This document shows positions 7,896 through 30,600 of a stretch of 64,000 nt of DNA, piece after piece. This DNA comes from Candidatus Undinarchaeota archaeon (GTDB taxonomy: Archaea > SpSt-1190 > JASMDC01). The first letter of the stretch is position 1. Each line of letters begins with the position of its first letter. The DNA is taken from assembly GCA_964519305.1 (NCBI GenBank), contig CAZFHY010000004.1, positions 64,001 through 128,000 on the forward strand, written 5' to 3'. The notes under the pieces were generated by a model that saw nothing but the letters and a program-made list of their open reading frames with translations, was not told where the DNA came from and made no database searches. Made by a program: the position numbers and the translations under genes.

Positions 7896-7952
7896 CCAGC
7901 TTCGGAGACCTCACCCCAATCCCTTTAAACCTTGACGCACACGGCCAGCACC

Positions 7953-10244
7953 GTGAACATCCTCGGGGTGTCCTTCAAAGCCCATGACAGATCGGCATGC
8001 ATCGTCCGCGATGGTCATGTGTTGGCCGCAGTGGAGGAGGAGCGGCTCAATAGGGACAAGCACACCGGCCACTTCCCCAAGAACTCCATCTTCGAGGTAC
8101 TGCGCCTGGCAGGGCTCACTCCCGATGATATCGACCTCGTCGCATATGGGGGTGAGGGGGCACGACCCATCGAACCTCCGCACCGCAGGTCCCGGGCTCA
8201 GCTAGCATCACTGTTCACCACGAACGTTCGTCTTCGCAATCAGGAGGAAGTGGACCGGATCCGGACTTTCTTTGCGGGCGAGCGTTCCAAACCGGTCGAG
8301 GTGGCCGCTGTCGACCATGAGACGGCACACTTGGCTTCAGCGGCCCTGTGCTCGGGATTCGATGGATGCACTGCTTTGGCTGTGGATGGGTATGGGGATG
8401 ATCGCTCGGCCGCCGTTGGCCGATGGGCTGACGGCTCCCTAGAGCTAGTAGCACCCTCCCCCCTACGCTCTTCCGTCGGGCTCGTGTACGGTTTGACTAC
8501 CCTCCTCCTCGGGCTGTCCATATGGCACGATGAGGGCAAGGTCACCGCCATGAGTTCGTTCCCGGGCGAGGTCCCGGATGGGATCGAACAACTATATGAG
8601 GCTCTCATGCCCCTTCCAAAAGAGGCAGAGCTGCAACCAACGGCCGAAGCCCTATTTGGGCTCCTTGATATTTCACCCGTCCCTCCCAGGGACCTGCGCA
8701 CTACACTCCATGGTTCGGAAGTGGTCCGACCCTCCCCCCGGTGGAGGCCGGAGCGCACGACGGAAGGGTATCTGTTACGACCTCCGTCCGGCAATCCATT
8801 GTCTGTAGAACCGCTCAAGGACGAGGAGTTCCGGGCACTATGGTACGTGCTCCGTCGCTCCCCCTCGGCACATGTTGATGAGGTCGTCCAGCTTGCCGCA
8901 CCTCTTGTTGGTATGAAGGACGAGGATGTTTGGGCCTGCCTCCTGCCCAGCGTCGAACTGCACAAGCGCCAAGGTGTGTTCTCGGCTTCCATGAGCGGTG
9001 GCCTGTCGCTCAGGCTCATCGAGCGTGACCACGCTGTGTACTCCCTGTGCGATGGGACGCGGACGACAACGAGCATTGCGGAGATGCTGGATATGGATGA
9101 AGGTGAGGTGCGGGACCTCGTTGAGTTCTCACCGCTCTGTCGCACTCTGTGGACGGGTGGTAACTCGTCCGGCGCCCCCGACACGGCAAGATTTGCGGAA
9201 AGGGCACTCAAAGCATTCCGGTCCTGGTACGACGCACGCGCAGTTGAGAAACCTCCCCTTGGGAAGCACAAAGGAACATTCATCGACGCCCCCGCGTACG
9301 CCGCGGTCCGAAGAGGGCTCTTTGAGAACACGACACGGCCTGCTGTGTCCAAGGCACTCCAGCGTAGGCTGGAGAAGGTGCTAACGTCGCTGGCGTCCCA
9401 AGCGGTCGAGCGCACGGGAGAGGCAAAGGTCGCCACCGCGGGAGGGGTGTTCCTCAATGTGCTGGCCAACATGAACATACGTCGACTGGATTGTGTCGAG
9501 GACCTGTTCATCCAACCTGCCGCAAGCGATGCAGGCACTTGTTTGGGTGCTGCGCTGTATGCTTGGCATCATCTGTGTCGCGAGGAGGGACAAAGACCCA
9601 CATCCCATCGCCTCGAGAGCGCATCCCTCGGCCCATCCTATACCGAGGACGATGTGCTGACGGCCCTCCGAGGGACACAGGGAATCACTTGGGATGCAAC
9701 TGACGATATGGCGGGTACAGCTGCGGACCTTGCTGCGGGAGGTGCTATTGTCGGTTGGTTCGAGGGACGAATGGAGTTCGGCCCTCGCGCCCTCGGCAAC
9801 CGTTCCGTGCTCGCCGATCCCGCTAACGCATCCACCAAGGACCGTATCAACCTCCTCCTCAAGGGCAGGGAATGGTACCAACCGTTCTGTCCCAGCCTCC
9901 CCCTGGCGCGGGCAGAAGAGTATCTGGTGGAAGGGCGGGAGGCGCCGTTCATGATCGAGGCCTATGATGTGCGTGCTGAGAAACGTGGTGAGATCCCGGC
10001 CGTCGTCCATGTCGATGGCACGACCCGGCCTCAGACAGTGCGGCGGGACCTACAGCCCGCCTACCACAGGGTGCTCACCGAGCTTGAGTCCCACACAGGT
10101 ATCCCCGTCGTGCTCAATACGTCCTTCAACATCCATGGTGAACCGATCGTGTGCACACCCCGGGATGCGCTCTCGGTGCTGGTCAGGCGTGGAGTGGACG
10201 TCCTTGTGATGGAGGGCTTCGTTGTCCGACGGACCAAGGACTAG
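7953..10244 (+). CDS. NodU/CmcH-type carbamoyltransferase with a large internal insertion
   Basis: NILGVS..HD, EEERLNRDKH, HETAH, VDGYGD, EGKV, GGVFLNV, EFGPRALGNRS, VHVDGTTRPQ and LNTSFNIHGEPIV. GTG 7953 lies 29 nt after TTTAAA. Confidence 0.92.
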   Translation: MNILGVSFKAHDRSACIVRDGHVLAAVEEERLNRDKHTGHFPKNSIFEVLRLAGLTPDDIDLVAYGGEGARPIEPPHRRSRAQLASLFTTNVRLRNQEEVDRIRTFFAGERSKPVEVAAVDHETAHLASAALCSGFDGCTALAVDGYGDDRSAAVGRWADGSLELVAPSPLRSSVGLVYGLTTLLLGLSIWHDEGKVTAMSSFPGEVPDGIEQLYEALMPLPKEAELQPTAEALFGLLDISPVPPRDLRTTLHGSEVVRPSPRWRPERTTEGYLLRPPSGNPLSVEPLKDEEFRALWYVLRRSPSAHVDEVVQLAAPLVGMKDEDVWACLLPSVELHKRQGVFSASMSGGLSLRLIERDHAVYSLCDGTRTTTSIAEMLDMDEGEVRDLVEFSPLCRTLWTGGNSSGAPDTARFAERALKAFRSWYDARAVEKPPLGKHKGTFIDAPAYAAVRRGLFENTTRPAVSKALQRRLEKVLTSLASQAVERTGEAKVATAGGVFLNVLANMNIRRLDCVEDLFIQPAASDAGTCLGAALYAWHHLCREEGQRPTSHRLESASLGPSYTEDDVLTALRGTQGITWDATDDMAGTAADLAAGGAIVGWFEGRMEFGPRALGNRSVLADPANASTKDRINLLLKGREWYQPFCPSLPLARAEEYLVEGREAPFMIEAYDVRAEKRGEIPAVVHVDGTTRPQTVRRDLQPAYHRVLTELESHTGIPVVLNTSFNIHGEPIVCTPRDALSVLVRRGVDVLVMEGFVVRRTKD

Positions 10245-10693
10245 ACAAGGACATCGTCCCGTGCGATGACCTCACCATCGCACAAGAGGAGCGCCTCGAT
10301 CACCTCACCCGCCCCAATGCTCTCGAACAGAAGGTCAGCGCTGACGACCGTCCTTCCTTCGGATTTATCAGGCGAGATGTCCGCCCAAATATTCTGCCCA
10401 TAGAGGGAGGGAGCGATATCCTTCGGGACCGACACGTGCCATGCGTCATCCTGGCCGTTGTGGTCGAACGCCAGCACAAGTATCGCACATCGCCTGTCGA
10501 CCGGGCTTCCTTCCCAAGAGAGTTCGAGCGTTGTGCGATAGATCCCCTCTCCCGCAGGACTGGGCCGGTCCAGGATACGGGCGTTCACCGATGCGGTAGA
10601 TGATGGGGTGAACCGGGTGGAACCCATGACCACAAGGGCAACTAGCCCGACCACCAGTATCACCAGTAATATGTGCTCACGCAGGTGGACCAT
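10241..10693 (-). CDS. membrane-anchored/exported hypothetical protein (last gene of the redox operon)
   Basis: N-terminal hydrophobic helix after ATG 10693, which lies 4 nt downstream of the NapH-like stop. Confidence 0.6.
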   Translation of the reverse strand: MVHLREHILLVILVVGLVALVVMGSTRFTPSSTASVNARILDRPSPAGEGIYRTTLELSWEGSPVDRRCAILVLAFDHNGQDDAWHVSVPKDIAPSLYGQNIWADISPDKSEGRTVVSADLLFESIGAGEVIEALLLCDGEVIARDDVLV

Positions 10694-10697
10694 GACA

Positions 10698-11486
10698 TCA
10701 CCCGTACTTGAAGCTGAAGGACAGGGCATCCTTGGGACACACATCGATGCACCGTCCGCAGCGGATACACTCTCCCGTGGGTACTGTCCGATGACCGCGA
10801 CGGATAGAGTCCTCAATGACGAGGATGTCCATGGGACACTCGCGCTGGCAGACCATGCACTCGATGCATGTATCCTCATCAACCAATACGCGGAACGCGC
10901 TCACCTTGTCCAAGATAGCGGCCAGCCCCCCGAGCGGACAGATCGATTTGCACCAGAACCGTCGATGATAGATTATCACGAAGAGCGCAGATATGAAGGT
11001 GATGGTCAGACCGGGGATCATGGCAAGGTCGAAGGTCTGAGGACCCGCGGTCCGGTACAGGGCACCGTACGGGCACACCTGGCAGAACACAGGATATCCA
11101 AAGACCATGGCCGCCCCTATGAAGACTGCCAAGAGCTCGTACTTGAAGGAATAGCCCTGTAGGATGCGTGGAGGACTGCGCTCCCTGACGGGGAGCTTGA
11201 GCGCGTTCGCGGCGCTCATGATGGTGCCGAACGGACAAACCCATCCACACCACACACGTCCGAAGACGATCACGAAGAGCGTGAATCCACCAACTAGTAA
11301 TGTGAGGCGGGAGAAGCCGCGGATAGTACCAGCATCAAAGGCCTCGTCGAAAAGACCTGAACCTATAGCGCCCGCTACCTGCTGTACACCGATGAACGGA
11401 CAGTACCGTGCGATCCCACCGAGAATTAATACGGCGATGAGGAGGAATATCGCCTGGATCGGCCGACGGTACGTTTGGACGGTCAT
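10698..11486 (-). CDS. NapH/MauN-like membrane polyferredoxin
   Basis: TM helices, GRVWCGWVCPFG, FCQVCPYG and RFWCKSICPLG; two CxxCxxCxxxCP motifs at the C-terminus. Confidence 0.9.
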   Translation of the reverse strand: MTVQTYRRPIQAIFLLIAVLILGGIARYCPFIGVQQVAGAIGSGLFDEAFDAGTIRGFSRLTLLVGGFTLFVIVFGRVWCGWVCPFGTIMSAANALKLPVRERSPPRILQGYSFKYELLAVFIGAAMVFGYPVFCQVCPYGALYRTAGPQTFDLAMIPGLTITFISALFVIIYHRRFWCKSICPLGGLAAILDKVSAFRVLVDEDTCIECMVCQRECPMDILVIEDSIRRGHRTVPTGECIRCGRCIDVCPKDALSFSFKYG

Positions 11487-12112
11487 GAGCGCACCACCTT
11501 ACGATCACTGGGCTTCAGAACGAGCACATCTGTCGGACAAACGTTCACGCAATGGCCACATCCCCTGCAGAAGTCCTCAAGGCGGGCGGTCTCACGTTCC
11601 AACGCGCCTTCCGAGATGGGCTCAAGGAGCTTGCGGTAGCGCATTACCTGCTCACCTTTCCCGGTAAGGTCGTTCTCAACGACCGTGTAGGGACAGGCCT
11701 CGTCGCATCGGTCACATTTGATACACCGCTCGGGATGGGCGAGAAACGCGGTGCCCAGCTTCGGTTGTCTACCGCTCTGCTGAAGTCCGGTCACGGTCCC
11801 GAGGTCGAGCACCTGGGTCGGACAGACCTCATTGCACTCATAACAGAACGTGCACGGACCCGGTTGGCCCGTAACGCGCGGTAGTCCGACCTCTTCTATC
11901 GGACCGGCAGACACGAGCTCAATAGCCTTGGTCGGACAGACCTGGGCGCACTGGCCACACCTGAGACAGAGGAGAGTTAACTGGCGAGGCTCCACGGCGC
12001 CGGGCGGACGTACATCTGTACCATTGCCCGTGGGTGGCGCCAGGGAGAGCGCCGCCGCCAGCGCAGCCCCGTACCCGAGAGCGGACCGCAGGAAGTCGCG
12101 TCGGTCGGCCAT
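11483..12112 (-). CDS. NapG/MauM-like Tat-exported polyferredoxin
   Basis: Twin-arginine signal DRRDFL, VRPPGA and four 4Fe-4S motifs. Confidence 0.9.
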   Translation of the reverse strand: MADRRDFLRSALGYGAALAAALSLAPPTGNGTDVRPPGAVEPRQLTLLCLRCGQCAQVCPTKAIELVSAGPIEEVGLPRVTGQPGPCTFCYECNEVCPTQVLDLGTVTGLQQSGRQPKLGTAFLAHPERCIKCDRCDEACPYTVVENDLTGKGEQVMRYRKLLEPISEGALERETARLEDFCRGCGHCVNVCPTDVLVLKPSDRKVVRS

Positions 12113-12113
12113 T

Positions 12114-12554
12114 TCACACAAACCTCCCATCGTTCTTCAGATCATCGATGGCGCTCATGATGGGGAGCCCGAGAGGGCATGCCTGCTCACAGAGCCCGCA
12201 CCTTACGCATAGACGGGCCGCCTCCCGCACAGGCATGGCATGCTTTCCGTCCACTTGACCTGGTAGGTCAGGATTGTTCGTGCGCGCTGCGACAACGAAC
12301 CGCGAGGGATCGAGCCCCCGAGGGCAGACTGGCCGGCAGGCCTGGCACTCGTAGCAGGTGAGCGCCCACATATGACGTGTGCGCAATGCCTTCACCGCAT
12401 TGCTGCCAAGGAGGACCGCGAGAGCAAGAGAGGCCATGACGTTCCGCCTGACCTCATCAACGGGCATGGTAACGGTCCGTCGGGCTCGACGTCCAACGAA
12501 ACCTGCCACTCCCGCGCTCGCCGCCAGCAGCACCGCGATAATGACAGGTTCCAT
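12114..12554 (-). CDS. membrane-anchored 2x[4Fe-4S] (HdrC-like) protein
   Basis: N-terminal TM segment; CYECQACRPVCP and CVRCGLCEQACP. Confidence 0.8.
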   Translation of the reverse strand: MEPVIIAVLLAASAGVAGFVGRRARRTVTMPVDEVRRNVMASLALAVLLGSNAVKALRTRHMWALTCYECQACRPVCPRGLDPSRFVVAARTNNPDLPGQVDGKHAMPVREAARLCVRCGLCEQACPLGLPIMSAIDDLKNDGRFV

Positions 12555-12565
12555 TTTTGAAGCAC

Positions 12566-12709
12566 CTAGAACAGGAACATCAGCAGCCCGGTCACAAGGC
12601 CGCCCATGATACCTCCGGGCTTGTAGAACGTATAGCCCAGGGCATAGTTGAACATTGCACCACAGAGGGCGCCGATCCCGACCATCGTCAGCAAGAGTCT
12701 CGTGTTCAT
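12566..12709 (-). CDS. 47-aa two-helix membrane microprotein (not in the ORF track)
   Basis: MNTRLLLTMVGIGALCGAMFNYALGYTFYKPGGIMGGLVTGLLMFLF*. It fills the operon gap with 7-nt and 11-nt spacers. Confidence 0.7.
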   Translation of the reverse strand: MNTRLLLTMVGIGALCGAMFNYALGYTFYKPGGIMGGLVTGLLMFLF

Positions 12710-12716
12710 AGCAAAA

Positions 12717-13457
12717 TCACCCCGAAAGGGTTCCGTTGGATATCAGTAGCATTATGAGGGCGGTCACAGCCGTCATCAACAGGATGCCCGCCTGCTGGGC
12801 CCTGGTGCTGGCACCTGGTTCGAGCCCAAGCTCACCCTCGCCCACGGCAGCGATCCCGCCGAGGCGTGAGGGGGCACAGGACGCGGCGGCGTTGACGATG
12901 AAAGCGGCCACGAGCACGTGGGTCGCGAACGGAGCATGATCTGCAGCCCCTGTGGCAGCGATACCGGGCGTGAGGACTTCGTTCCCGAACCTCACGACGC
13001 CCGGCAGGAAGGCCGCCGCAGTGATGCGGCCACAGGGCAATGGAATGAGCGCAGGTATGTTCGCTAACAGAACGGCCGTCCCGACCAGTCCCAGAGGTGT
13101 TGTCATCGCAAGCCTCTCGAGGACCTCGACCATCGCATCATATCCTCCTGCGAATCCCAGTGCACCCGCGGCCATGAAGCCACCGGTCATGGCCATGATG
13201 GGATGGAGCATTATCCCTGCCAAGAGGTCAGCAAGCGTCGCCTCCGATACCACCAGCATGAACAATGCTAGTGCCACCAGAACGGTCTGAATAGGGATCG
13301 GAGGAGGTGCCACCTGGGCGTACGCGAGCGTCGTTGCGAACACCAACAGGCAGATGTACCCTGTCCTGAGGTGCTTATCGTCGATGCGGGAACGGATGAT
13401 CACCAGGGCCACAGCAATCCAGACAACCGCTCCGATTAAAGGAATAGAGAGATCCAT
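12717..13457 (-). CDS. polytopic membrane protein, paralog of 13462-14148
   Basis: Hydrophobic; shares LHP, LPCGRI, NAAASCAPS and GEG motifs with its neighbour. Confidence 0.8.
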   Translation of the reverse strand: MDLSIPLIGAVVWIAVALVIIRSRIDDKHLRTGYICLLVFATTLAYAQVAPPPIPIQTVLVALALFMLVVSEATLADLLAGIMLHPIMAMTGGFMAAGALGFAGGYDAMVEVLERLAMTTPLGLVGTAVLLANIPALIPLPCGRITAAAFLPGVVRFGNEVLTPGIAATGAADHAPFATHVLVAAFIVNAAASCAPSRLGGIAAVGEGELGLEPGASTRAQQAGILLMTAVTALIMLLISNGTLSG

Positions 13458-13461
13458 TACC

Positions 13462-14148
13462 TTATCGCCCTCCTGCCTTCAGGGGCGCAAGCCGCCCGAG
13501 GACCACTGCAGTAAAAGCGGTCCCCGCCATTATTCCCGCGCGTAGAGGGTCCGAGAAAGCACCGACAGGCTGACCGGTCATGCCCTCACCAATCATTCCT
13601 AGGCCCCCTAAGATTGAAGGTGCACATGATGCGGCGGCATTGACCGTGAAAGCGAACACAACGACCGCTACTAAGCGATCGTCACCCTGACGTTCTGCGA
13701 CTGCCCGACCGAGGAAGAGTGCGGCCGGGAGCAGCGCGGCACCAAGTATTCGGCCACAGGGGAGGGCGATTATGGCGGGCGAATTGACGAGCAGGACCAC
13801 CACTCCTGGAAGGCCGAATACTTCCATCCCACCGATCTTGAACGAGGCGAGCCGGTCAAGGGCATCCACCAGTGCCTCGAAGGCACCGGAAACTTCCAGG
13901 CCACCAACTACCAGGAATCCGGCTATCAGAGCTGTGATGGGATGGAGCTGGATGGAAGCTAATAGGTCCGCAGGAGTGATGGTGCGCGCCAGTCCCTGAC
14001 GAGCACCTACTACGGAGATGAGCACAATAAGGAGCGTCACACCGAGCAACGCCGTATGAATGGGTATATGGTTCTGAGGGATGATCCCCTTCAATGAGAG
14101 AACGATGGTCGCGAGGAACAGAGCGAGCGCAAGGTATCCGACGATCAT
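13462..14148 (-). CDS. polytopic membrane protein, paralog of 12717-13457
   Basis: Hydrophobic; LHPITAL, LPCGRI and NAAASCAPSILGG..IGEG. Confidence 0.8.
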   Translation of the reverse strand: MIVGYLALALFLATIVLSLKGIIPQNHIPIHTALLGVTLLIVLISVVGARQGLARTITPADLLASIQLHPITALIAGFLVVGGLEVSGAFEALVDALDRLASFKIGGMEVFGLPGVVVLLVNSPAIIALPCGRILGAALLPAALFLGRAVAERQGDDRLVAVVVFAFTVNAAASCAPSILGGLGMIGEGMTGQPVGAFSDPLRAGIMAGTAFTAVVLGRLAPLKAGGR

Positions 14149-14978
14149 ATCATCCCCTCCTCGGCCGCTTTCCGGGCAGCACGGCGCTCCTTGGCCTCGT
14201 TGACCACACGTTCGAGGTTCTTTGTGAAGTCGTCCATACCGAATGCCACCAAGAAGGCCAATGATACGACCTTCATGTTCGCAGCTGCTTTGCGCAGGGC
14301 AGGATCGGTATCTTCGTCAGCCACCACTTCCGCGAGAGCTTCGCTCAGGGAAATCTCGCATCGGGGGCAGGCGGTCACGATTAGGTCGGCCTTGGTCGCC
14401 AGGGCATTACGTATCTTGCTGGAGCGTAAGGATGTGGCCACTTCAGGATCACTCGCCCGGAGGCCTCCAGAGCCGCCGCAACAGGACTCGGCCTCCTCCA
14501 TTTCGATAACCTCAAGGCCACGAATAGCGTCAAGGACATCCCTCATGACCGCATTGTCCACACCCATCCCCCGGTTGAGATGGCAAGGATAATGAACGGT
14601 AACTCGAGCGTTCACCTCTCCGAGCCCGCTCTTGCGGAGGAACTCCATTTTCTCAGGAAGTAGTTCGATGAAATGGGTGACCTCGATACCTCTTCGTGCT
14701 ACGTCCGCAGAATCCATGAGCGCGGTCCCGCAACCAGGGCATGACACCAGTACTTCGTCCACAGGACCTTGCAATCGACCCCAGCCACTGACGGAGATGT
14801 TGATGAGCTTGTCCTTTGCTGCCATATCGCCGATGAACGATGACGGTCTCCCACAACAGATGTCCCTGGGGGGTTCGGTCACTTCAATCCCGAGCTTCTT
14901 CAGAAGGTATCGTACCGCATATCTTGTGTCAAGTAGCTGGAGCCCGTAGAAACAACCGTCGAAGACCAGGCGTTGCAT
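14145..14978 (-). CDS. heterodisulfide reductase subunit B-like CCG-domain Fe-S protein
   Basis: Two CCG domains: GC..ICCG..SCPGC and YPCH..SCCG..TACPRC. Confidence 0.85.
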   Translation of the reverse strand: MQRLVFDGCFYGLQLLDTRYAVRYLLKKLGIEVTEPPRDICCGRPSSFIGDMAAKDKLINISVSGWGRLQGPVDEVLVSCPGCGTALMDSADVARRGIEVTHFIELLPEKMEFLRKSGLGEVNARVTVHYPCHLNRGMGVDNAVMRDVLDAIRGLEVIEMEEAESCCGGSGGLRASDPEVATSLRSSKIRNALATKADLIVTACPRCEISLSEALAEVVADEDTDPALRKAAANMKVVSLAFLVAFGMDDFTKNLERVVNEAKERRAARKAAEEGMI

Positions 14979-15763
14979 TACGATCCCTCCAAAGACCTTG
15001 TCGAACGCTTCCGTCCTCCAGTGCCCTTCTTCGCAGACCTTTTCGAGGCTTTCTTCTTCACTGATTTCTTTGAACGATCGCTCTTCGAGTTCTTTTTCGG
15101 CTCCACTGTCTCTTTCTCGGCAACCGTACGTTCAGGCTCTGTATCAGCGGTCCCGTCGTTAGTATCGTCAGGCCTGTCCTTGTCGAGCGTCGTTTCCGGA
15201 CCGTCCGCTGACGAGACCTCTTGTTCTTTTTCTTCAAGGTGTCGCTCAAGCTGTCGTGCGCTCCTTAGGATGGACCGGGCCTGCGATGCAGGATCGGGTC
15301 GGCTCTTGATCTCGCCGAGGACGTTCCTTGCTTTTTCTAGCCTTTCGAGTAGTTTTACCTGACCATCGGTCGCCCCATCCTTACCGAACCGGATACCTCT
15401 ACCTGCGAGCACCATTGCTTCAGCGTCCAGTCCTCGAGGGCATCGTTCCACGCAGTTACGACATGTAGAACAAATATGGAGCCCTCCAGCCATTATCCGC
15501 GCGTCATGTCCAGCACGGAGCGAGCGCATGACCTCGGCAGGCCCTATGAATGTGGCCCTGCCCTCCCCTTCCTTGTTATCGATCTCTTTTGCGATAGCCA
15601 CTACAGGACATACTGCAGTACATTGACGACAGTCGGTGCATAACAGGGTCCTTGAGACCTCGCGGAAGATGGCCGAGAGGATAAGGAGGGTCGGTACTGT
15701 CATCAGGAGGAGTGCGACACCCCCGTGCAGTGCCGTGGGCCCTCCCGGGAGAAAGGAGACCAT
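14978..15763 (-). CDS. HdrC-like 2x[4Fe-4S] protein with N-terminal TM helix and charged low-complexity tail
   Basis: CTDCRQCTAVCP and CSTCRNCVERCPRG; N-terminal hydrophobic helix; K-rich C-terminus. Confidence 0.82.
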   Translation of the reverse strand: MVSFLPGGPTALHGGVALLLMTVPTLLILSAIFREVSRTLLCTDCRQCTAVCPVVAIAKEIDNKEGEGRATFIGPAEVMRSLRAGHDARIMAGGLHICSTCRNCVERCPRGLDAEAMVLAGRGIRFGKDGATDGQVKLLERLEKARNVLGEIKSRPDPASQARSILRSARQLERHLEEKEQEVSSADGPETTLDKDRPDDTNDGTADTEPERTVAEKETVEPKKNSKSDRSKKSVKKKASKRSAKKGTGGRKRSTRSLEGS

Positions 15764-15853
15764 CGGGATGCGGGCGGTGCCACATGCTTAAATGTATTCA
15801 CCCGGAGAGTTTAACCGAAATATTTAAATAGCAAGATTGTATTATTACTACTA

Positions 15854-17122
15854 TTGAGTAGTGATGTTGGTGAGCTGCGTGAGCTCCTTGGCTCCGTCAT
15901 CGCTTCATACTTCGAGGACACACCAGCGGCGGCACTACCGGACAACGCTCCGGATTATCTCAATGATGTGGCATCTTCTTCGTCGGCAAAGGAGGCCGTT
16001 AACACTCTCGCGAAGCACATGGAGGAGGTCTATAATGACCTGGGTTCATTCTCTGTCCGCTCAAGGGACACCCTTCTCGACGTCGGTGGAAGTTCGCTCG
16101 GCGTGTACCACATCAACGAACACGAACGCGACGATGCCCGCGGTATCGATGTCTACGAAGTGGCGACCCTGGCTGAGAGCGATGGACGACAGGGCACGAC
16201 CGGTCTCACAGAACGCCACCCTGACGGCACGACCGTTCTCATCAAAGATGATTCTCTGATCGATCAAGGCATGACCAACTACAAGGAACGGGACATAATC
16301 GAATCGACCCACCTGCCGGAAAAATTCGTCCAGAAGGTTAATAATGCGATTACTGGCCTCCACCGGGATGACGTGAGCCGGGACGAGTACAAGGCCGCGA
16401 CCCGGTACCACGAGCTCGGTCATGCTGACCTCGTGGCGGGTCTTGATGCCACTACGGCGAACGAGTTCCTGCGCAGCTACGAGGATATCGGACTGAGCGA
16501 AGCTTACGCTACGGTAAAAGGTCTTGAGCTCGCGGAACGTGACGGTGCTGGTCAAAACGTTCGCTCGCTCCTCGTCCGGGACCTGCTGCAGTGGACGACC
16601 ACTGTGAAGGAAGGCTTTACCTGCCCCTATGCAAAGGCCGCGTTCCACGTGCTCAACCGCTTCGATAAAGCGTACGGGATCGACAAGATACCCGACCACT
16701 TAGATGATATCGCCCGCGATGCAGGAACGCTCGCAAAAGAGCTGGGCGGGATAGCACGACAGCGCATGGACGGCTCCCTCTCATGGAAGGAGCTTGAACG
16801 GACGTACGAGAAGGACGAGAACGAGCTCACGGGACAGAACCGTTATGTTCTTGATGACGGTCTGGCCGAGCGGGACCCGAAGGCCATGCTGACATACATC
16901 GCGGAGAACGCCCCCGAGCGACTGCCCAATCCCCTCTACCAGCCCATAACACCCCAATCCCTTCAACAGGCGCTCCACACATTCCAGCACAACGTGACGT
17001 TCAACGTGTTCTACATGGAGGGCGAGGAGGTTCAGAAGGCCACGGCGGTCGACGCCGGGACCTTCGACGCCTACTTCATGCGCGACGCGGAGGGGCAGCT
17101 CTACTACATGCCCATGGGATAG
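15854..17122 (+). CDS. hypothetical protein with HExxH zincin-like motif
   Basis: Long acidic ORF with RYHELGHA followed by SEAYA; TTTAAATA box 31 nt upstream. Confidence 0.6.
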   Translation: MSSDVGELRELLGSVIASYFEDTPAAALPDNAPDYLNDVASSSSAKEAVNTLAKHMEEVYNDLGSFSVRSRDTLLDVGGSSLGVYHINEHERDDARGIDVYEVATLAESDGRQGTTGLTERHPDGTTVLIKDDSLIDQGMTNYKERDIIESTHLPEKFVQKVNNAITGLHRDDVSRDEYKAATRYHELGHADLVAGLDATTANEFLRSYEDIGLSEAYATVKGLELAERDGAGQNVRSLLVRDLLQWTTTVKEGFTCPYAKAAFHVLNRFDKAYGIDKIPDHLDDIARDAGTLAKELGGIARQRMDGSLSWKELERTYEKDENELTGQNRYVLDDGLAERDPKAMLTYIAENAPERLPNPLYQPITPQSLQQALHTFQHNVTFNVFYMEGEEVQKATAVDAGTFDAYFMRDAEGQLYYMPMG

Positions 17123-24614: not shown

Positions 24615-27600
24615 ATGAAAGGTGCCCGCCGACGCATCCTGTTGATGGCAGTGGTCCTTGCCATGAGCCTCGGCTGCAGCGCATGGTGCTTCAGCACTTC
24701 CACAACGAGCTGCCTCCCTCAAGCAAGAAGTAGCCTCTGTTACTACAGCGGATACTATCAATATCCGAAATGCTGCTACAGCTACCGGAACTCCAAGCCC
24801 TCATGCGCTCAGACCATCAGTGGCACTACCTGTAAGTACGGCGGGAGCACATCCTGCACGTCCACCGGCTGGTCGACGTGCTCCTACTCATACCAGGACA
24901 CGAACAAGCCCGGTTGCGCTTACAAGGTGGACGGTAACATATGCTATTACTCGGGCAGCGCGCAGTGTACCGCTGGCGGTTGGGAGTGCGACTACCAGAG
25001 CACCTCGAAACCGGCCTGCGCCCACTACCCGGACCAGAGCACATGCTACCATTCCGGTACGACCGGATGCACCGCATCCGGATGGTCGACATGTGACTTC
25101 CAGACCGACAGTAAACCCGCATGCGCGAACTACGCAAGCGGGAACACATGCTACCACTCGGGATCGACCCAGTGCACTGCAACTGGGTGGTCCGCCTGCG
25201 ATTTCCAGACAGAGACCAAGCCCGCGTGCGGGAATTATGCGAGCGGGAGCACATGCTTTCACTCAGGAACATCACAATGCAAGGCGACAGGATGGGAATG
25301 CAGCTACCAGACGGAGACCAAGCCCACCTGTGGCAATTACGCGGACGGGAACACATGCTATCATTCGGGCACGGCACAGTGCACCGCCTCAGGATGGGAG
25401 TGCGACTACCAGACAGAGTCCAAGCCAGCGTGCGGTAACTATGCCGACGGGAACACATGCTATCATTCGGGCACGGCGCAGTGCACCGCCTCGGGATGGG
25501 AGTGCGACTACCAGACCGAGACCAAGCCAGCCTGTGCGTCCTATCTAGATGGCAACATCTGCAAGCACTCGGGAGTTAGCGAATGTACAGCGTCGGGATG
25601 GTCCGGCTGCTCTTTCGAGAGCGAGACCCGACCTACATGCGGACATTACCCTAACGGGAACTCCTGCTACCACACGGCCAATCCAGAGTGCCAGGCCGGG
25701 GGATGGTCGGACTGCAAGTACGAGATCGACTTTAGTCCCGATTGCTCTGCCACTGCCAGTGACCGTCTTTGCCAATATGGCGGTAGTACGACATGCACGT
25801 CTACGGGTTGGGATGTGTGCGCCTTCCCCCACCAGGATACCAACAAGCCCGATTGTGGGCCGCAACCGGACGGGAACACCTGTAGTTATTCTGGGGAGAC
25901 GGATTGCACGGAGAGCGGATGGGCGTCATGTAATTACCAGAGCGACACGACGAAGCCCGACTGCAGCCCCCGGGAGAGCGGAACTAATTGTGACTATGGT
26001 GGGATCACGTCATGCACATCGTCAGGGTGGTCCCAATGCACGCATTCCTCCGATTCGAACAAGCCTGTCTGCAATCCCGTTGCATCTGGCGACACATGTT
26101 ATTACGGCAGGTACACCCGGTGCGGTTCCAGCGGGTGGAGCGAGTGCACTCACACTTATCAGGATACTAACCAGCCCAGTTGCGAACCCGATCCCGTGGG
26201 GGACACCTGTCGATACTCGGGCAGCACGTCCTGTAGTGAGTCTGGATGGAAGAGTTGTATCTACAGCCAGCAGGACAGTGGCAAGCCCGCATGTAATCCG
26301 AAGCCCGTGGGAGACACCTGCCAATACCAGGGCTCAACAGAGTGCACGTCGAGCGGATGGGAAGGTTGTACTTACGCGGCCTCGGACGCTTCACGCCCCA
26401 CCTGCACCCCCACCGCCGACGGTGACTCCTGCCATTATGGTGGCGTAAGCGTGTGCGGCAGCTCCGGATGGACCCCCTGTTCGGACAATGTGGACAATGA
26501 TCGGCCGAACTGTGAACCCGAGTCCGTCGGGAACACATGCAGCTACTCGGGATCCAGCTCGTGCACAACCACAGGATGGTCTGGTTGCGATTATGCGCAC
26601 GAGGACGCCGGCAAGCCGGATTGCGGACCAAAGGACGAGGGGAACACATGCAGCTATGGAGGGAATGCACAGTGCACGACCGCCGGATGGTCGAGCTGTT
26701 CCTACTCGCTGACCGATACGAACAAGCCGACCTGCAATCCTTCGCCCTTGGATAGTACGTGTCGGTACAGCGGGCATACCACCTGTGGGAGCGGAGGATG
26801 GGAGGCGTGCGCCTTCGACTACTCCGACACGAACCCCCCCGACTGCTCTCCTTACACGGAAGGTACCTATTGCTACTACCAGGGCAGCTCCTCGTGCGGG
26901 AGCGGAGGATGGACGGAGTGTAGTCACAGCGGGTCCGACTCGCAGCGACCGGCATGCCCGCCCAAGCCCGAGGGCAACGCATGCAAGTTCGGTGGTTCGC
27001 CGGAGTGTACGGAGTCGGGATGGGGCGAATGTGCGTACACCTCGAGCGATACACAGCGACCCGCGTGCGCACCGTACACGGACGGCAACATCTGCTATTA
27101 TGGGGGGACACCACAGTGCGGTACCGACGGATGGTCCGAGTGCGACTACGAAAGCTCCGACCATCAGCGACCAGCATGTCCGCCCGATGAGGACGGGAAC
27201 ACCTGTAAGTTCGGTGGCTCTCCCGCATGCACGGAATCGGGCTGGGGTGGCTGTACATTCACATCCCAGGAGTCCAACAAACCCGACTGTGGCCCGGTGG
27301 CCCAGGTGGACGTGTGCCAGTTCGATGGGTGGACCCAGTGCACAGCGTCCGGCTGGGCTACCTGCACCTTCAACCAGCAGGATGCGAGCAGACCTGCCTG
27401 CGAACCAGAGGCCTCTGGCACTAACTGCCGTCACAGTGGGACTGCTACATGTAAAACGGACGGCTGGTCGGACTGCGAGTACACCATAGACACTTCGATG
27501 CCAGCCTGCCCCCACTACTCTTCGGGCCGGACCTGCAACTACAGAGGCACAACGTCATGCACGGCCTCAGGATGGTCCACTTGCGACTATAACGAGGACA

Positions 27601-30600
27601 CCGAAAAACCGGCTTGCGGTCATTATGAGGAGGGTGGCATATGCTACTTCGGCGGCGGTACATTGTGCACGTCCGACGGATGGTCGTCTTGCGACTACGC
27701 TCAGCTGATCGGTGACAAGCCCTCATGCCCGCCCCTCGCCAATGGAGGCACCTGCCAGTTCGACGGCTCGACCTCATGCACCAAGGAAGGCTGGGCCTCC
27801 TGCGCTTTCGCGAGCACGGACCCGACAAAACCACCCTGTCTTCCAAAGGCGGTCGATAACAACTGCTACTTCAGCGGCCTTACCAACTGCGCTGTAGGTG
27901 GTTGGACCCGCCCCTGCGAGTTCAAGGAGTCCAGCTCGAGCCGCCCCGTCTGTGACAACTACATCGACGCACAGGCGCTCGAGTGCCACTTCAGTGGATT
28001 CACGGACTGCAAGGAAGGAGGGTGGTCCGTGTGCGATTACTCGCGGTGCGAGATAGACGTGCTCGGTTCCACTGACGAAAGCTGCTCCGATATGGAATGC
28101 TCGGTGTGCGCGTCCTCGAACGGGGACACAAACTATTACACGTGCGTTGTGTGCGCGAAAGAGGAATGGCGGGAGAACCAGTGCTGCGGTGACGATCCTG
28201 ACGAAGGGTGGTGCGGTCTCTCCGGCTATTGTCATGAGGGTGCTTGGACGATGGTCGCGGAGAGCGATCCCGACAATAACGCGCACTTCTGCGAAGTATG
28301 CTCGTCCTTTGCCTGGCGGGAGAACCGCTGCTGCGGGGACGATCCCGATGAGGCCTGGTGCGGAGTGACCGGGTACTGCCAGACCGGCAGCTGGATCGCT
28401 GTCAAGGACGGGAACGCCGACCTGGACGCAGAGTACTGCCGGACATGCAAGGGCGGTACCTGGCAGTTCTCGACCGCGGACCGGACCGCTGCGTGCTGCG
28501 GGGACGATCCCGATGAGGAGTGGTGCGGTGCTGGAGGTTTCTGTAAAGTCGGTGAATGGATCGCGGTCGCCGACGCGGACGATGACCAGCATTTCTGTGA
28601 GAACTGCATGGCAAATACCATGTGGGCGGACGGACGGTGCTGCGGGGATGACGGCGCAACGGAGTACTGGAACAGTACCGACGGCGTCTGCTGCGGAGGC
28701 GAGTTCCACGTAGGCACGGGCGTCTGCTGCAACAATACATGGGCTGACGGTGGGAACTGCTGCCTGATCAGCGACTGTCTCGAGCGCCCGTTCGCATCGT
28801 GCTCATTGGTGGGCTGCACTGCGAACCGCTGCTCCTACGACAGGGTGTGCTCAGGCAATGCTTGTGCTATCGATACGGACGACTGGTGCGCTGCATGTTC
28901 CAGCCCTGACGGGGACGCCAATGAGGACTCATGCTCATGTTTTAACGGTAGCTGGCACATCTCGACCGCCGATCAGAAGGAGATGTGCTGCGGGGACGAC
29001 AAGGGCGAGGATTGGACCGGTATAGATGGTCTCTGTCTCGACGGCCGGTGGGGTGTCAGCGACGAGCCATGTCTCACGAGCGACAGTTGTACCAAATCGC
29101 CCTATGACGTCTGTACCAACAACCAGTGCGTGTGCACTTCCGATGAGTGCCCGTCGAAGATGTGCTTGTACTCCCTCGATTGTGAAGCCACCAACTGCCG
29201 GGACGATGCCTGGTGCGACCTGTGCAGCAAGGACGGGGACAACGACATGAATAGCTGTGAGTGCGCCGGGGGCGAGTGGATCGACGGGAGATGCTGCGGG
29301 GACGATAAGGAGAAGGACAGCTGGTGCGGCGCCACCGCCCGCTGCCTCAAGGGGATCGTACAGCGGGACCAGTGCAAGGAGTGCGATGCCTGTCTGTTCG
29401 GTAACTGCACCACTTTCTGCGATGGTACCACGTGCGCCCAGGGCAGCAAGGTATGGTGCTCTGCGTGCGCCAATCTGGAGGGCGATGCAGACCCGTTCTC
29501 CTGTCAGTGCAAAGGAGGTATCAACGCCCGTTGGATCGATGAGCAATGCTGCGGGGACGACATCCTGGAGCGCTGGAACTCGACATCCGGTATCTGCTGC
29601 GCAGGTGCGTTCACAGCTGGAGGAAACTGCTGCTCGGACGCCGATTGCATCGGAAACTATACCTGTCAGGAGGACTTCACCTGCTCGCGGTCATGCCGCT
29701 TCGGGTTCAAGTCATGCGGCGGGAACTGCTACATGGGCGACGGTGTATGCTGCAACTCGACCTGGATCAAGAGCGGCACATGCTGCGGCGACCAGGACTG
29801 CCCGCACGACCGTCCTGTCTGTGATGGTGACATCGCCATCTGTCGTACCTGCACTGCCTCCATCGAGTGTGGACCCGATAGCGAGTGCTGTGGAGGAAAA
29901 TGCTACGGCGGACACGGATTGTGCTGTGATGACTCCTGGTATACCGGGGACGGCGTATGCTGTGGTGACGCGGACTGCACCGAGGGTACGACGTGCTTTG
30001 TGAGCGGACACCGTTGCTCGGCCATAGAGTGCCAGGAAGGATTCTCCCCCTGTGGGAAACGGTGCGAGGAGGGCGAGGGCACGTGCTGCGACGAGAAGTG
30101 GTACACTGCAGAAGGCAACTGCTGTGATGATACGTGGATCGAGGGTTCCGACTGCTGCAACGACAACGACTGCGGTACGTTCCTTTGCGACAACCACCAG
30201 TGCTCCAAGGTGTGCAAAGGCCGGTTCACCTTCTGTGGCGAGCAGTGCTGGCTCGGCCAGGGTGCATGCTGCGACAGCTCGTGGGTCGAGCACGGCCAGT
30301 GCTGCACTTCGGCCAACTGCACACGGACCCTGCCTGTGTGCGAGGATAACATCTGCCGCTCATGCGCCGAGGATAGCGAGTGCAGTGAGGGTGAGATCTG
30401 CTGCCAAGGTCAGTGCTACCCTCCACAACTCGGAGCATGCTGCAACAGCACCTGGTTCCATGGCATGTCCAGTTGCTCACAAGTCTCTTGCGAGGTGGAA
30501 CGTGGTGGTGTTCTCTGTGCGGGCTCCTGCATCATGCAAAAGGGCGCATGTTGCGAGGACCGGTTCCTCATGGGGATAACCAGATGCCCTGAGTGCGGCG

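Follow-up and report, generated by a model that had tools for sequence, protein, structure and literature searches.

A split four-cysteine membrane protein of transporter fold encoded among iron-sulfur proteins in an archaeal operon: a candidate haem-free transmembrane redox complex

How anaerobes without quinones or cytochromes link their cytoplasmic redox pools to the cell exterior is an open question, and few routes are known (Rnf/Nqr, NapH/NosR-like, MsrQ-like, PepSY-like, and DsbD-like). In Rnf and Nqr, two oppositely oriented paralogous subunits (RnfA/RnfE or NqrD/NqrE), with two Cys each, hold an intramembrane Fe or Fe-S centre, through which electrons pass between Fe-S carriers in the cytoplasm and flavin carriers in the periplasm as part of an ion pump driven by redox chemistry. 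CcdA/DsbD is also an inverted repeat, with one Cys per repeat, and its elevator-like motion carries reducing equivalents through the membrane. Five transmembrane electron-transfer classes have been proposed (NapH-like, MsrQ-like, PepSY-like, DsbD-like, and NQR/RNF-like), and no protein with the fold of the IT superfamily of elevator-type transporters is among the classes as named there (PMC8238504). The subject of this report is an operon in a 64,000-nucleotide stretch of contig CAZFHY010000004.1 from a Candidatus Undinarchaeota archaeon (contig positions 64,001 to 128,000; this whole stretch is called the window, and all positions refer to it unless a locus or contig is named). Its nine genes, g1 to g9 in operon order (Table 1), surround what we call the core, a membrane protein with four invariant Cys that is encoded in two parts, g3 and g4, with Fe-S proteins. 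We give about an even chance to the reading that the operon specifies a transmembrane Fe-S redox complex that works without haem or quinone and has a redox-active four-Cys centre in its core. The gene combination is rare and undescribed, and it may represent a new haem- and quinone-free way to move electrons across a membrane.

Comparison of g3 with g4 showed that they are paralogous (41% identical, E 3e-35), as an earlier reading of the window from its sequence only had noticed. However, they are not two separate Cys-bearing membrane proteins, as that sequence-only reading had listed them, but the two inverted-repeat halves of one membrane protein. When one genome of each of 185,579 species was scanned with motif patterns, 51 loci were found, which together with the window make 52 sources (loci are cited by L numbers where they need to be told apart). 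The halves were fused into a single protein of 418 to 609 amino acids (aa) in 33 of these sources and split into adjoining genes in 16, the window among them. The other three were odd: two loci (L049 and L051) had one half only, and L053 was too diverged for the motif patterns. The family is very rare, with 25 clusters at E ≤ 0.001 among 5.8 billion; in 1.84 billion representatives, a profile search had 71 matches at E ≤ 0.001, of which 59 were at ≤ 1e-10 and 34 at ≤ 1e-30. The gene pair is single-copy in the window genome.

Sequence searches said little about what this protein is. No Pfam or NCBIfam model matched g3, g4, g5, or g9; the threshold was E ≤ 0.01 for g3/g4, and fused forms gave no family at E ≤ 0.001. 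One core homologue had a weak CitMHS match below the cut-off (20.1 bits compared to 31.9; E 3.8e-4), and a g3/g4 profile run against PDB sequences returned chance-level matches only, the best at E 0.21 to GABA receptor chains. A language-model atlas look-up placed the core with Dcu, CitMHS, and DctM clusters (score 0.93, 160 to 165 shared features). The structural comparison was more informative. An AlphaFold2 model was made for a fused homologue from a 31-sequence alignment (pLDDT 86, pTM 0.87); the two halves of this homologue share 41% and 48% identity with window g3 and g4, respectively. The model is an inverted repeat with a scaffold and a transport domain, two helical hairpins, and two discontinuous helices. 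In VIA-align, it matched ArsB (10tp_A) with a Z of 24.6 over 396 aligned residues (root-mean-square deviation 4.3), followed by VcINDY (4f35_A; Z 22.4, ~395 residues), the TRAP transporter SiaQM (19.5), NaS1 (18.0), Pho90 (17.4), and the AbgT-type YdaH (17.2), compared to Z ≤ 6 for unrelated rows. Foldseek gave 36 matches at E ≤ 0.001 (E 8e-6), and among the matches listed all were IT-superfamily transporters. No Nqr or Rnf chain was among the fold matches listed, although absence from such a list does not exclude one. By this model, the core protein has the IT-superfamily elevator-transporter fold over its whole length, and window g3/g4 would share the fold of the fused homologue.

Further analysis of the core sequences showed that each half carries the motifs HP[ILV][TM]A, PCGR, and NAAASC(G/A)PS, and that the Cys of the last two are invariant. 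C121, C165, C348, and C392 are present in all 31 fused sequences; in alignments of the separate halves that include the window, g3 C131 and C175 are invariant in 30 of 30 sequences (N-half alignment A3), and g4 C142 and C194 in 32 of 32 (C-half alignment A4). Even three distant high-GC relatives retain all four Cys despite drift of the neighbouring motifs. Invariant Asn, Arg, Glu, and His residues stand alongside them. DSSP assignment of the model places the PCGR Cys in helical-hairpin turns, between helices 102-117 and 122-144 and between 340-343 and 349-371, and the SCGPS Cys at helix breaks (164-172 and 391-399). In the account of ArsB given in PMC13381914, the metalloid pocket is enclosed by the HP1-L1 and HP2-L2 elements, and Asn111, Asn158, Asn337, and Ser380 contact As(OH)3. 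These contact residues are spaced 47 and 43 residues apart, and the core Cys 44 and 44. Because the hairpin and helix-break elements are those that enclose the ArsB substrate pocket, we infer that the four thiols would line the central pocket of a mobile transport domain. Such a site may hold a redox-active centre, which could be an Fe ion, an Fe-S cluster, or redox-active Cys pairs.

Since g3 and g4 are halves of an IT-superfamily-fold protein, a transport function is a serious rival, in fact the main one, and we rate it as rather unlikely. Under it, g3/g4/g5 would work as a genuine secondary transporter of the elevator type, carrying a solute that binds thiols (arsenite or antimonite, selenide, sulfide or polysulfide, or a soft metal ion), and this solute would be reduced or oxidised by the Fe-S proteins at one membrane face or at both. 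The fold matches to ArsB, DASS, and TRAP extend over the whole length, the four Cys occupy the canonical substrate-pocket elements (as laid out in the ArsB account), and the invariant Asn, Arg, Glu, and His lie beside them as in ion-coupled carriers; the atlas features (Dcu, CitMHS, and DctM; 0.93) and the weak CitMHS match point the same way. However, ArsB binds a neutral metalloid by hydrogen bonds, which PMC13381914 contrasts with As-S binding in Cys-rich proteins, and four thiolates would be expected to hold soft metals too tightly for turnover. The neighbouring genes also argue against transport. Among the scanned neighbour families, none that recurs is an enzyme acting on a sulfur, selenium, arsenic, or metal substrate, and most are Fe-S electron carriers; the others are, in some bacterial loci, membrane-bound reductive-dehalogenase-like, DsbD_2, DUF59, and PpiC proteins, and also the model-less families c5, c14, c20, and c25.

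These neighbourhoods were compared by clustering the locus open reading frames (ORFs) by all-against-all BLASTP, with neighbours counted over 50 loci outside the window genus; domain names rest on the scan of one representative per family. A transmembrane (TM)-anchored HdrC-type dicluster gene adjoins the core in 44 of the 50 loci, which cover at least nine labelled lineages and several gene orders. Of the six loci without one, four (L006, L007, L017, and L031) end at a contig edge within ~1.1 kb of the core, and the remaining two, L049 and L051, contain one half of the core gene only. The frequencies of the other neighbours were 33 for g1-like, 26 for g2-like, 25 for g6-like, and 24 for g8-like genes, 27 for family c5, 19 for c8 (signal or TM segment plus Fer4), and 18 for DsbD_2. 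Four arrangements recur. First, in the Thermoplasmata type the order is g6, Tat-ferredoxins (carrying twin-arginine translocation [Tat] signals), g1, g2, c5, core, g5, c20, and g8. Second, in the Altiarchaeota type it is c5, core, g5, g6, c8, c17, g8, g1, g2, and DsbD_2. Third, Spirochaetota and Desulfobacterota have DUF59, DsbD_2, two TM-anchored reductive-dehalogenase-like genes, core, g6, c8, g1, and PpiC. Finally, the Coatesbacteria-type and Planctomycetota loci have core, c14, c26 (FMN_bind plus dicluster), and c47, where c14 is a TM-anchored Cys-rich protein with a weak RnfC-type match. This means that the conserved unit is the core, a small peptide, and membrane-anchored diclusters, whereas the HdrB-like, NapH-like, GltD-like, FMN_bind, and reductive-dehalogenase-like modules are interchangeable. 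The expectation that the genes would be co-conserved elsewhere is thus borne out: in archaea as well as bacteria, and in differing orders, the core occurs with g1-, g2-, g5-, g6-, and g8-like genes. A cytoplasmic thiol/disulfide reaction, which the sequence-only reading had placed at one end of the conduit, fared less well: the HdrB-like module occurs in 26 of 50 loci and is one of several interchangeable inputs, not the defining reaction.

The small peptide g5 is counted as a core subunit because it is fused to the core C terminus in seven bacterial loci (hidden Markov model [HMM] positions 9 to 50 on residues 444 to 485). g5-like sequences were found in 39 of 52 sources with the HMM and in 32 of 50 loci by BLASTP clustering, and the ratio of nonsynonymous to synonymous substitutions (dN/dS) of window g5 is 0.32. 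It is likely a subunit of the g3/g4 protein. The Cys of g5 was considered as an extra ligand and dropped, as it is not conserved.

The interchangeability of the modules bears on another explanation, that there is no single complex and that a NapGH-like pair, an HdrBC-like pair, and a transporter act independently and merely share an operon. Roughly half of the loci lack g2, and roughly half lack g8, which would fit such an arrangement. It is nonetheless improbable, as TM-anchored diclusters adjoin the core in 44 of 50 loci, archaeal and bacterial and of several gene orders. The core is never alone where the flanking DNA suffices and is in some loci fused to g5, and the genes overlap or are translationally coupled.

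Several features of the neighbouring genes stand apart from the arrangement of the window. Family c5, a TM protein of 124 aa with CxxC...CxxC, lies directly upstream of the core in 27 of 50 loci and is missing from the window operon. A c5 homologue (114 aa) is encoded on another contig of the window genome (C6:132275-133266; L054 8276-9267), with DsbD_2 (CcdA-like; E 1.2e-22) as the very next gene. The two may form a thiol-reductant export pair belonging to the system, so the operon, described at first as self-contained, is possibly not fully so. In Planctomycetota locus L050, the core-adjacent c14 (10024-11541) is fused to a cytochrome-b561-like domain (Ni_hydr_CYTB, 1.3e-10), and its homologue in L052 is, at 512 aa, of similar length; this L050 version, at least, may not be haem-free. 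The reductive-dehalogenase-like family occurs beside the core in seven Spirochaetota loci (L018, L023, L029, L031 to L033, and L036) and three Desulfobacterota loci (L013, L043, and L047). The two members scanned, both from L018, are N-terminally membrane-anchored and score 155 and 138 bits to TIGR02486 (cut-off 160). The core module may be the electron supply of the "hybrid" membrane-bound reductive dehalogenases of PMC6797604, a paper on TM-anchored reductive dehalogenases whose text mentions neither neighbours nor a ferredoxin.

The predicted sidedness of the subunits is consistent with a path through the membrane. In the g6 family, basic residues and then one TM helix precede the Fe-S domain (alignment A5). 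An RR pair directly before the helix is found in archaeal sequences only (13 of the 23 aligned); the Thermoplasmata-type loci have a canonical TRREFMG, and window g6 has VRRNVM, a hydrophobic stretch, and AVKA in this position. Because a twin-arginine motif and a hydrophobic stretch precede the Fe-S domain, g6 is predicted to be Tat-targeted with this domain outside the cell, and TatC is encoded in the window genome. The sequence-only reading was therefore right that g6 is a second TM-anchored dicluster protein, but its Fe-S domain is predicted outside, not inside. The g1 family shows the opposite pattern, with an uncharged or acidic N terminus and R/K past the TM helix, and is followed by the signal-less g2; its Fe-S domain is predicted to be cytoplasmic. 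Charge counts over 31 core sequences put both termini outside and the inter-repeat linker inside, the arrangement given for ArsB in the published account. An outside N terminus fits because some Thermoplasmata-type g3 homologues have N-terminal extensions with beta-helix/NosD-like domains (L014) or a weak CARDB-like match (L004). One dicluster protein would thus lie on each membrane face, with the four-Cys protein between them, and the earlier claim of Fe-S proteins on both faces agrees with this prediction.

In another explanation, the core would export iron, sulfide, or a preformed Fe-S cluster, making the operon a maturation system that builds or repairs outside Fe-S proteins instead of a respiratory conduit. 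In the bacterial loci this has some appeal: they bring a TM-anchored DUF59 protein (FeS_assembly_P, 4.7e-18), DsbD_2, and a PpiC-type foldase, and their g6-type and c8 proteins have Sec-like N termini with no RR before the Fe-S domains. DsbD_2 is also found in Altiarchaeota-type loci and elsewhere in the window genome. However, the archaeal outside Fe-S proteins have twin-arginine motifs, so they are expected to be exported folded with their clusters, yet the core is present there. Cytoplasmic input modules of the HdrBC-like or GltD-like kind are also hard to explain by pure export, and we hold a maturation role to be quite unlikely.

The remaining subunits are relatives of characterised electron carriers. 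g1 has one N-terminal TM helix and then two CxxCxxCxxxCP motifs, CTDCRQCTAVCP and CSTCRNCVERCP; it matches Pfam Fer4_8 at 7e-10 and HdrC TIGR03290 at 30.5 bits (cut-off 160). Its C-terminal ~110 aa (14978-15300) form a tail rich in K, E, S, and D that is missing from most homologues (110 to 200 aa). g2 contains CX31CCGX37CXXC twice with all 10 Cys kept (Pfam CCG 1.5e-28, two stretches). Its best NCBIfam matches were the C-terminal part of TfrB (136 bits; cut-off 385), LdhH (109; 800), and HdrB TIGR03288 (66; 345.15), compared to 26.8 for NF041780 (cut-off 450), and the closest solved chains are HdrB (9sfi_C, 1.3e-19; 5odc_B, 8.7e-16). g6 has TM segments and matches Fer4_17 at 1.3e-11. In the Altiarchaeota-type g6, the second CxxCxxCxxxCP retains its last two Cys (alignment A5, columns about 300 to 320), while window g6 retains four; these proteins may have one complete cluster and a site completed by a partner subunit. 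g7 combines RRDFLR with four CxxCxxCxxxCP (4Fe-4S) motifs and matches NapG at 5.5e-20 (NF007012, 71.6 bits, cut-off 269) and NapF at 67 bits (cut-off 102); in other lineages, Tat-signal ferredoxins of families c21, c22, and c17 stand in its place. g8 is NapH-like (7e-35; TIGR02163, 120.8 bits, cut-off 213.05; NF007013, 118.4 bits, cut-off 234; Pfam Fer4_5, 1.3e-15). The NapH-like protein of L027 (748 aa, 10926-13172) has a C-terminal GltD-like NAD(P)H flavoprotein domain (473 bits to PRK12778), and the Thermoplasmata-type loci L022, L040, L042, and L048 have NapH-like ORFs of like length (745 to 795 aa), the L027 form being the one scanned. This fusion implies that NAD(P)H is the partner in the cytoplasm and that the C terminus lies on that side. 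For g9, a homologue was found only in L003 (81% identical) among the loci searched, and dN/dS is 0.28; the atlas look-up gave clusters without names (best score 0.83) and was uninformative. The description of g9 as exported rests on its hydrophobic N terminus. The other domain calls of the sequence-only reading agree with Pfam and NCBIfam, as does its statement that HdrA, hydrogenase, molybdoenzyme, and cytochrome genes are missing from the cluster; no product of the operon matched such a family, or HdrE, in these databases. Every named domain match is far below its curated equivalog cut-off, which marks these proteins as relatives rather than orthologues of characterised enzymes. As had been supposed, no characterised complex was matched in Pfam, NCBIfam, or the literature. 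No description of such a cluster was found there, and the supplementary gene-cluster tables of PMC8238504 could list such loci.

Table 1. Coordinates and assignments of the operon genes and of other features in the window
Feature	Position	Strand	Length (aa)	Assignment
g1	14978-15763	-	261	Membrane-anchored HdrC-like 2x[4Fe-4S] protein; Fe-S domain predicted cytoplasmic
g2	14145-14978	-	277	HdrB-like, two CCG domains; without signal peptide, predicted cytoplasmic
g3	13462-14148	-	228	N-terminal half of split IT-superfamily-fold protein; invariant H69-P70, P130-C131-G132-R133 (hairpin tip), N170-AAAS-C175-x-P-S (broken helix)
g4	12717-13457	-	246	C-terminal half, extra N-terminal TM helix; invariant H85-P86, P141-C142-G143-R144, A191-x-S193-C194
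g5	12566-12709	-	47	Two-helix membrane peptide, glycine-zipper motif G..G.M.N.A ... GG..GG...G..M
g6	12114-12554	-	146	Membrane-anchored HdrC-like dicluster protein; Fe-S domain predicted outside
g7	11483-12130	-	215	NapG/NapF-like ferredoxin, twin-arginine signal MADRRDFLRS; alternative start 12112
g8	10698-11486	-	262	NapH-like membrane Fe-S protein, four TM helices, CxxxCP motifs, two C-terminal 4Fe-4S motifs
g9	10241-10693	-	150	From ATG 10693; hydrophobic N terminus; specific to window lineage
Putative promoter region	15786-15830	-		Read from sequence
Flanking gene	7932-10244	Opposite to operon		Carbamoyltransferase
Flanking gene	15854-17122	Opposite to operon		ORF, no function assigned
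Single ORF	24615-32021	+	2468	

The layout agrees with the first description of nine co-oriented genes that overlap or lie at most 11 nt apart, the ORF coordinates placing all nine on the minus strand between 10241 and 15763. The junctions range from a 17-nt overlap (g6/g7), which becomes a 1-nt gap if the second Met at 12112 is the g7 start, to an 11-nt gap (g5/g6); the others are overlaps of 1 nt (g1/g2) and 4 nt (g2/g3 and g7/g8) and gaps of 4 nt (g3/g4 and g8/g9) and 7 nt (g4/g5). The longest g9 ORF begins at TTG 10882, 185 nt inside g8, but the ATG in Table 1 is the likely start because it is 4 nt past the g8 stop and a hydrophobic N terminus comes next. GGAGG-like sequences are found upstream of internal genes, and no Shine-Dalgarno-like sequence is found ahead of g1, which would fit a leaderless or short-leader mRNA. 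One TATA box had been described; the TATA-like TATTTAAATA is indeed at 15821-15830, ~60 nt upstream of g1, and a second A/T-rich box, ATACATTTAAGC, is nearer, about 25 to 35 nt ahead of the g1 ATG, the promoter role being putative. The intergenic region is 90 nt and is common to the divergent gene. Comparison with the congeneric genome L003 (protein identity 81 to 93%) gave dN/dS of 0.07 to 0.32 across all nine genes. This points to purifying selection on all of them, so g5 and the orphan g9 evolve like coding sequence.

The window genome, 99.8% complete by marker genes, was searched for mcr and quinone pathways as the sequence-only reading had proposed, and no match to McrA, MenA, MqnA/D, or NuoH was found, other quinone routes being outside this search. 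Because MenA, MqnA/D, and NuoH have no match, a quinol-dehydrogenase role for the NapH-like g8 is unlikely in this organism, and quinone independence is probable. The genome encodes RnfA/E (at C10; PF02508 matches 2e-64 and 2e-59), four MvhD-like domains, one of them beside a second HdrB-like gene, and two [NiFe] hydrogenase loci. By this content, the organism appears to be an anaerobe of the ferredoxin-based type. Its genome has 3.63 Mb and that of its congener 3.8 Mb, compared to 0.6 to 1.2 Mb in 15 other genomes of the same GTDB class, and the core gene is found in 2 of the 17 genomes of that class. For a class whose genomes are otherwise reduced and DPANN-like, this would be a large genome with a rich metabolism.

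In the redox-complex reading, electrons would enter or leave in the cytoplasm at the CCG clusters of HdrB-like g2, via a thiol/disulfide couple, and would pass along g2, g1, the g3/g4/g5 core, g6, and g7. g1, with g2, would dock on the cytoplasmic face, and g6, with g7, on the outer face. NapH-like g8 would be a second membrane Fe-S element and partner of g7, and g9 is possibly a lineage-specific adaptor. A more specific version of this scheme, possible but doubtful in our judgment, is an "electron elevator" in which the mobile IT-fold domain ferries an Fe or Fe-S centre on the four Cys between g1 and g6. By alternating access, this domain would take electrons from one side of the membrane to the other, possibly with a coupling ion, although ion translocation is pure speculation. 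A complex prediction for g3, g4, and g6 with three 4Fe-4S clusters scored 0.12 and 0.10 (mark 0.32) and speaks neither for nor against binding.

Several points weigh against the redox complex. First, we know of no IT-superfamily member with a redox cofactor, the fold is that of secondary transporters, and the cofactor at the four Cys is a putative one. Second, the case for physical association of the subunits rests on synteny and one kind of fusion. Third, the nine-gene set itself is not the conserved unit, as g2 is missing in 24 of 50 loci and g8 in 26, and g7 and g9 in their present form are confined to the window genus. Fourth, the 8 bacterial loci of the g6 alignment have no RR, and the side of g6 there is read from charge bias. 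Finally, a search of sequencing runs gave 8 DNA runs from 2 studies and no RNA runs among those listed.

If the four-Cys site does hold a redox centre, it would be a further, structurally unrelated route across the membrane and the first redox use of the elevator fold. The electron-elevator version, if true, would add a class of transmembrane electron carrier that needs neither haem nor quinone nor flavin. Such a carrier, perhaps an ion pump driven by redox chemistry, would parallel NqrDE/RnfAE in function while having arisen independently. The core module also lies beside the membrane-bound reductive-dehalogenase-like genes of Spirochaetota and Desulfobacterota.

Comparison with the known systems places the parts of this operon as follows. 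g7 and g8 resemble NapGH in being a Tat-exported four-cluster ferredoxin and a four-helix CxxxCP membrane protein in napG-napH order, with two cytoplasmic 4Fe-4S motifs in g8 as in NapH-like proteins, and they belong to the NapH-like class of extracytosolic electron-transfer systems as that class is outlined in PMC8238504. However, both are under the equivalog cut-offs (71.6 compared to 269 for g7 and 120.8 compared to 213.05 for g8). Unlike NapH-like systems, the window has no NapA/B/C, NosZ, or RdhA, the genome has none of the quinone-pathway markers searched, and the conserved partner is a transporter-fold protein. Among the HdrBC-type systems (HdrABC, HdrDE, TfrB, DsrK, and LdhH/GlcF), the likeness is in the two CCG domains and 10 Cys of g2 and the HdrC-type double CxxCxxCxxxCP of g1, whereas g1 is membrane-anchored, the operon has no HdrA, HdrE, or flavoprotein, and the genome has no McrA. 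A methanogen-type Hdr role was rejected, as McrA is missing from the 99.8% complete genome. The core protein shares with the IT transporters (ArsB, DASS/VcINDY, TRAP DctM, and AbgT) the inverted two-fold repeat and a whole-length fold match (Z 24.6 to 17), but it is a member of no described sequence family (ArsB, CitMHS, DASS, DctM, or DcuA/B). Each of its four pocket elements has Cys where those transporters have polar Asn, Ser, or Thr residues. Its gene is split in 16 of 52 sources and is consistently linked to Fe-S proteins and a small peptide subunit. Homology of g3/g4 to Rnf/Nqr was rejected on sequence, since they have no PF02508 match while the RnfA/E of the same genome do; the Coatesbacteria-type core loci likewise have an FMN_bind protein. 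Homology to CcdA/DsbD was also rejected, with no DsbD_TM or DsbD_2 match: g3/g4 are larger, with a different fold and two Cys per repeat, although DsbD_2 genes accompany the core in 18 of 50 loci. Set beside these systems, the operon is a new architecture within a known kind, the membrane Fe-S electron-transfer complexes.

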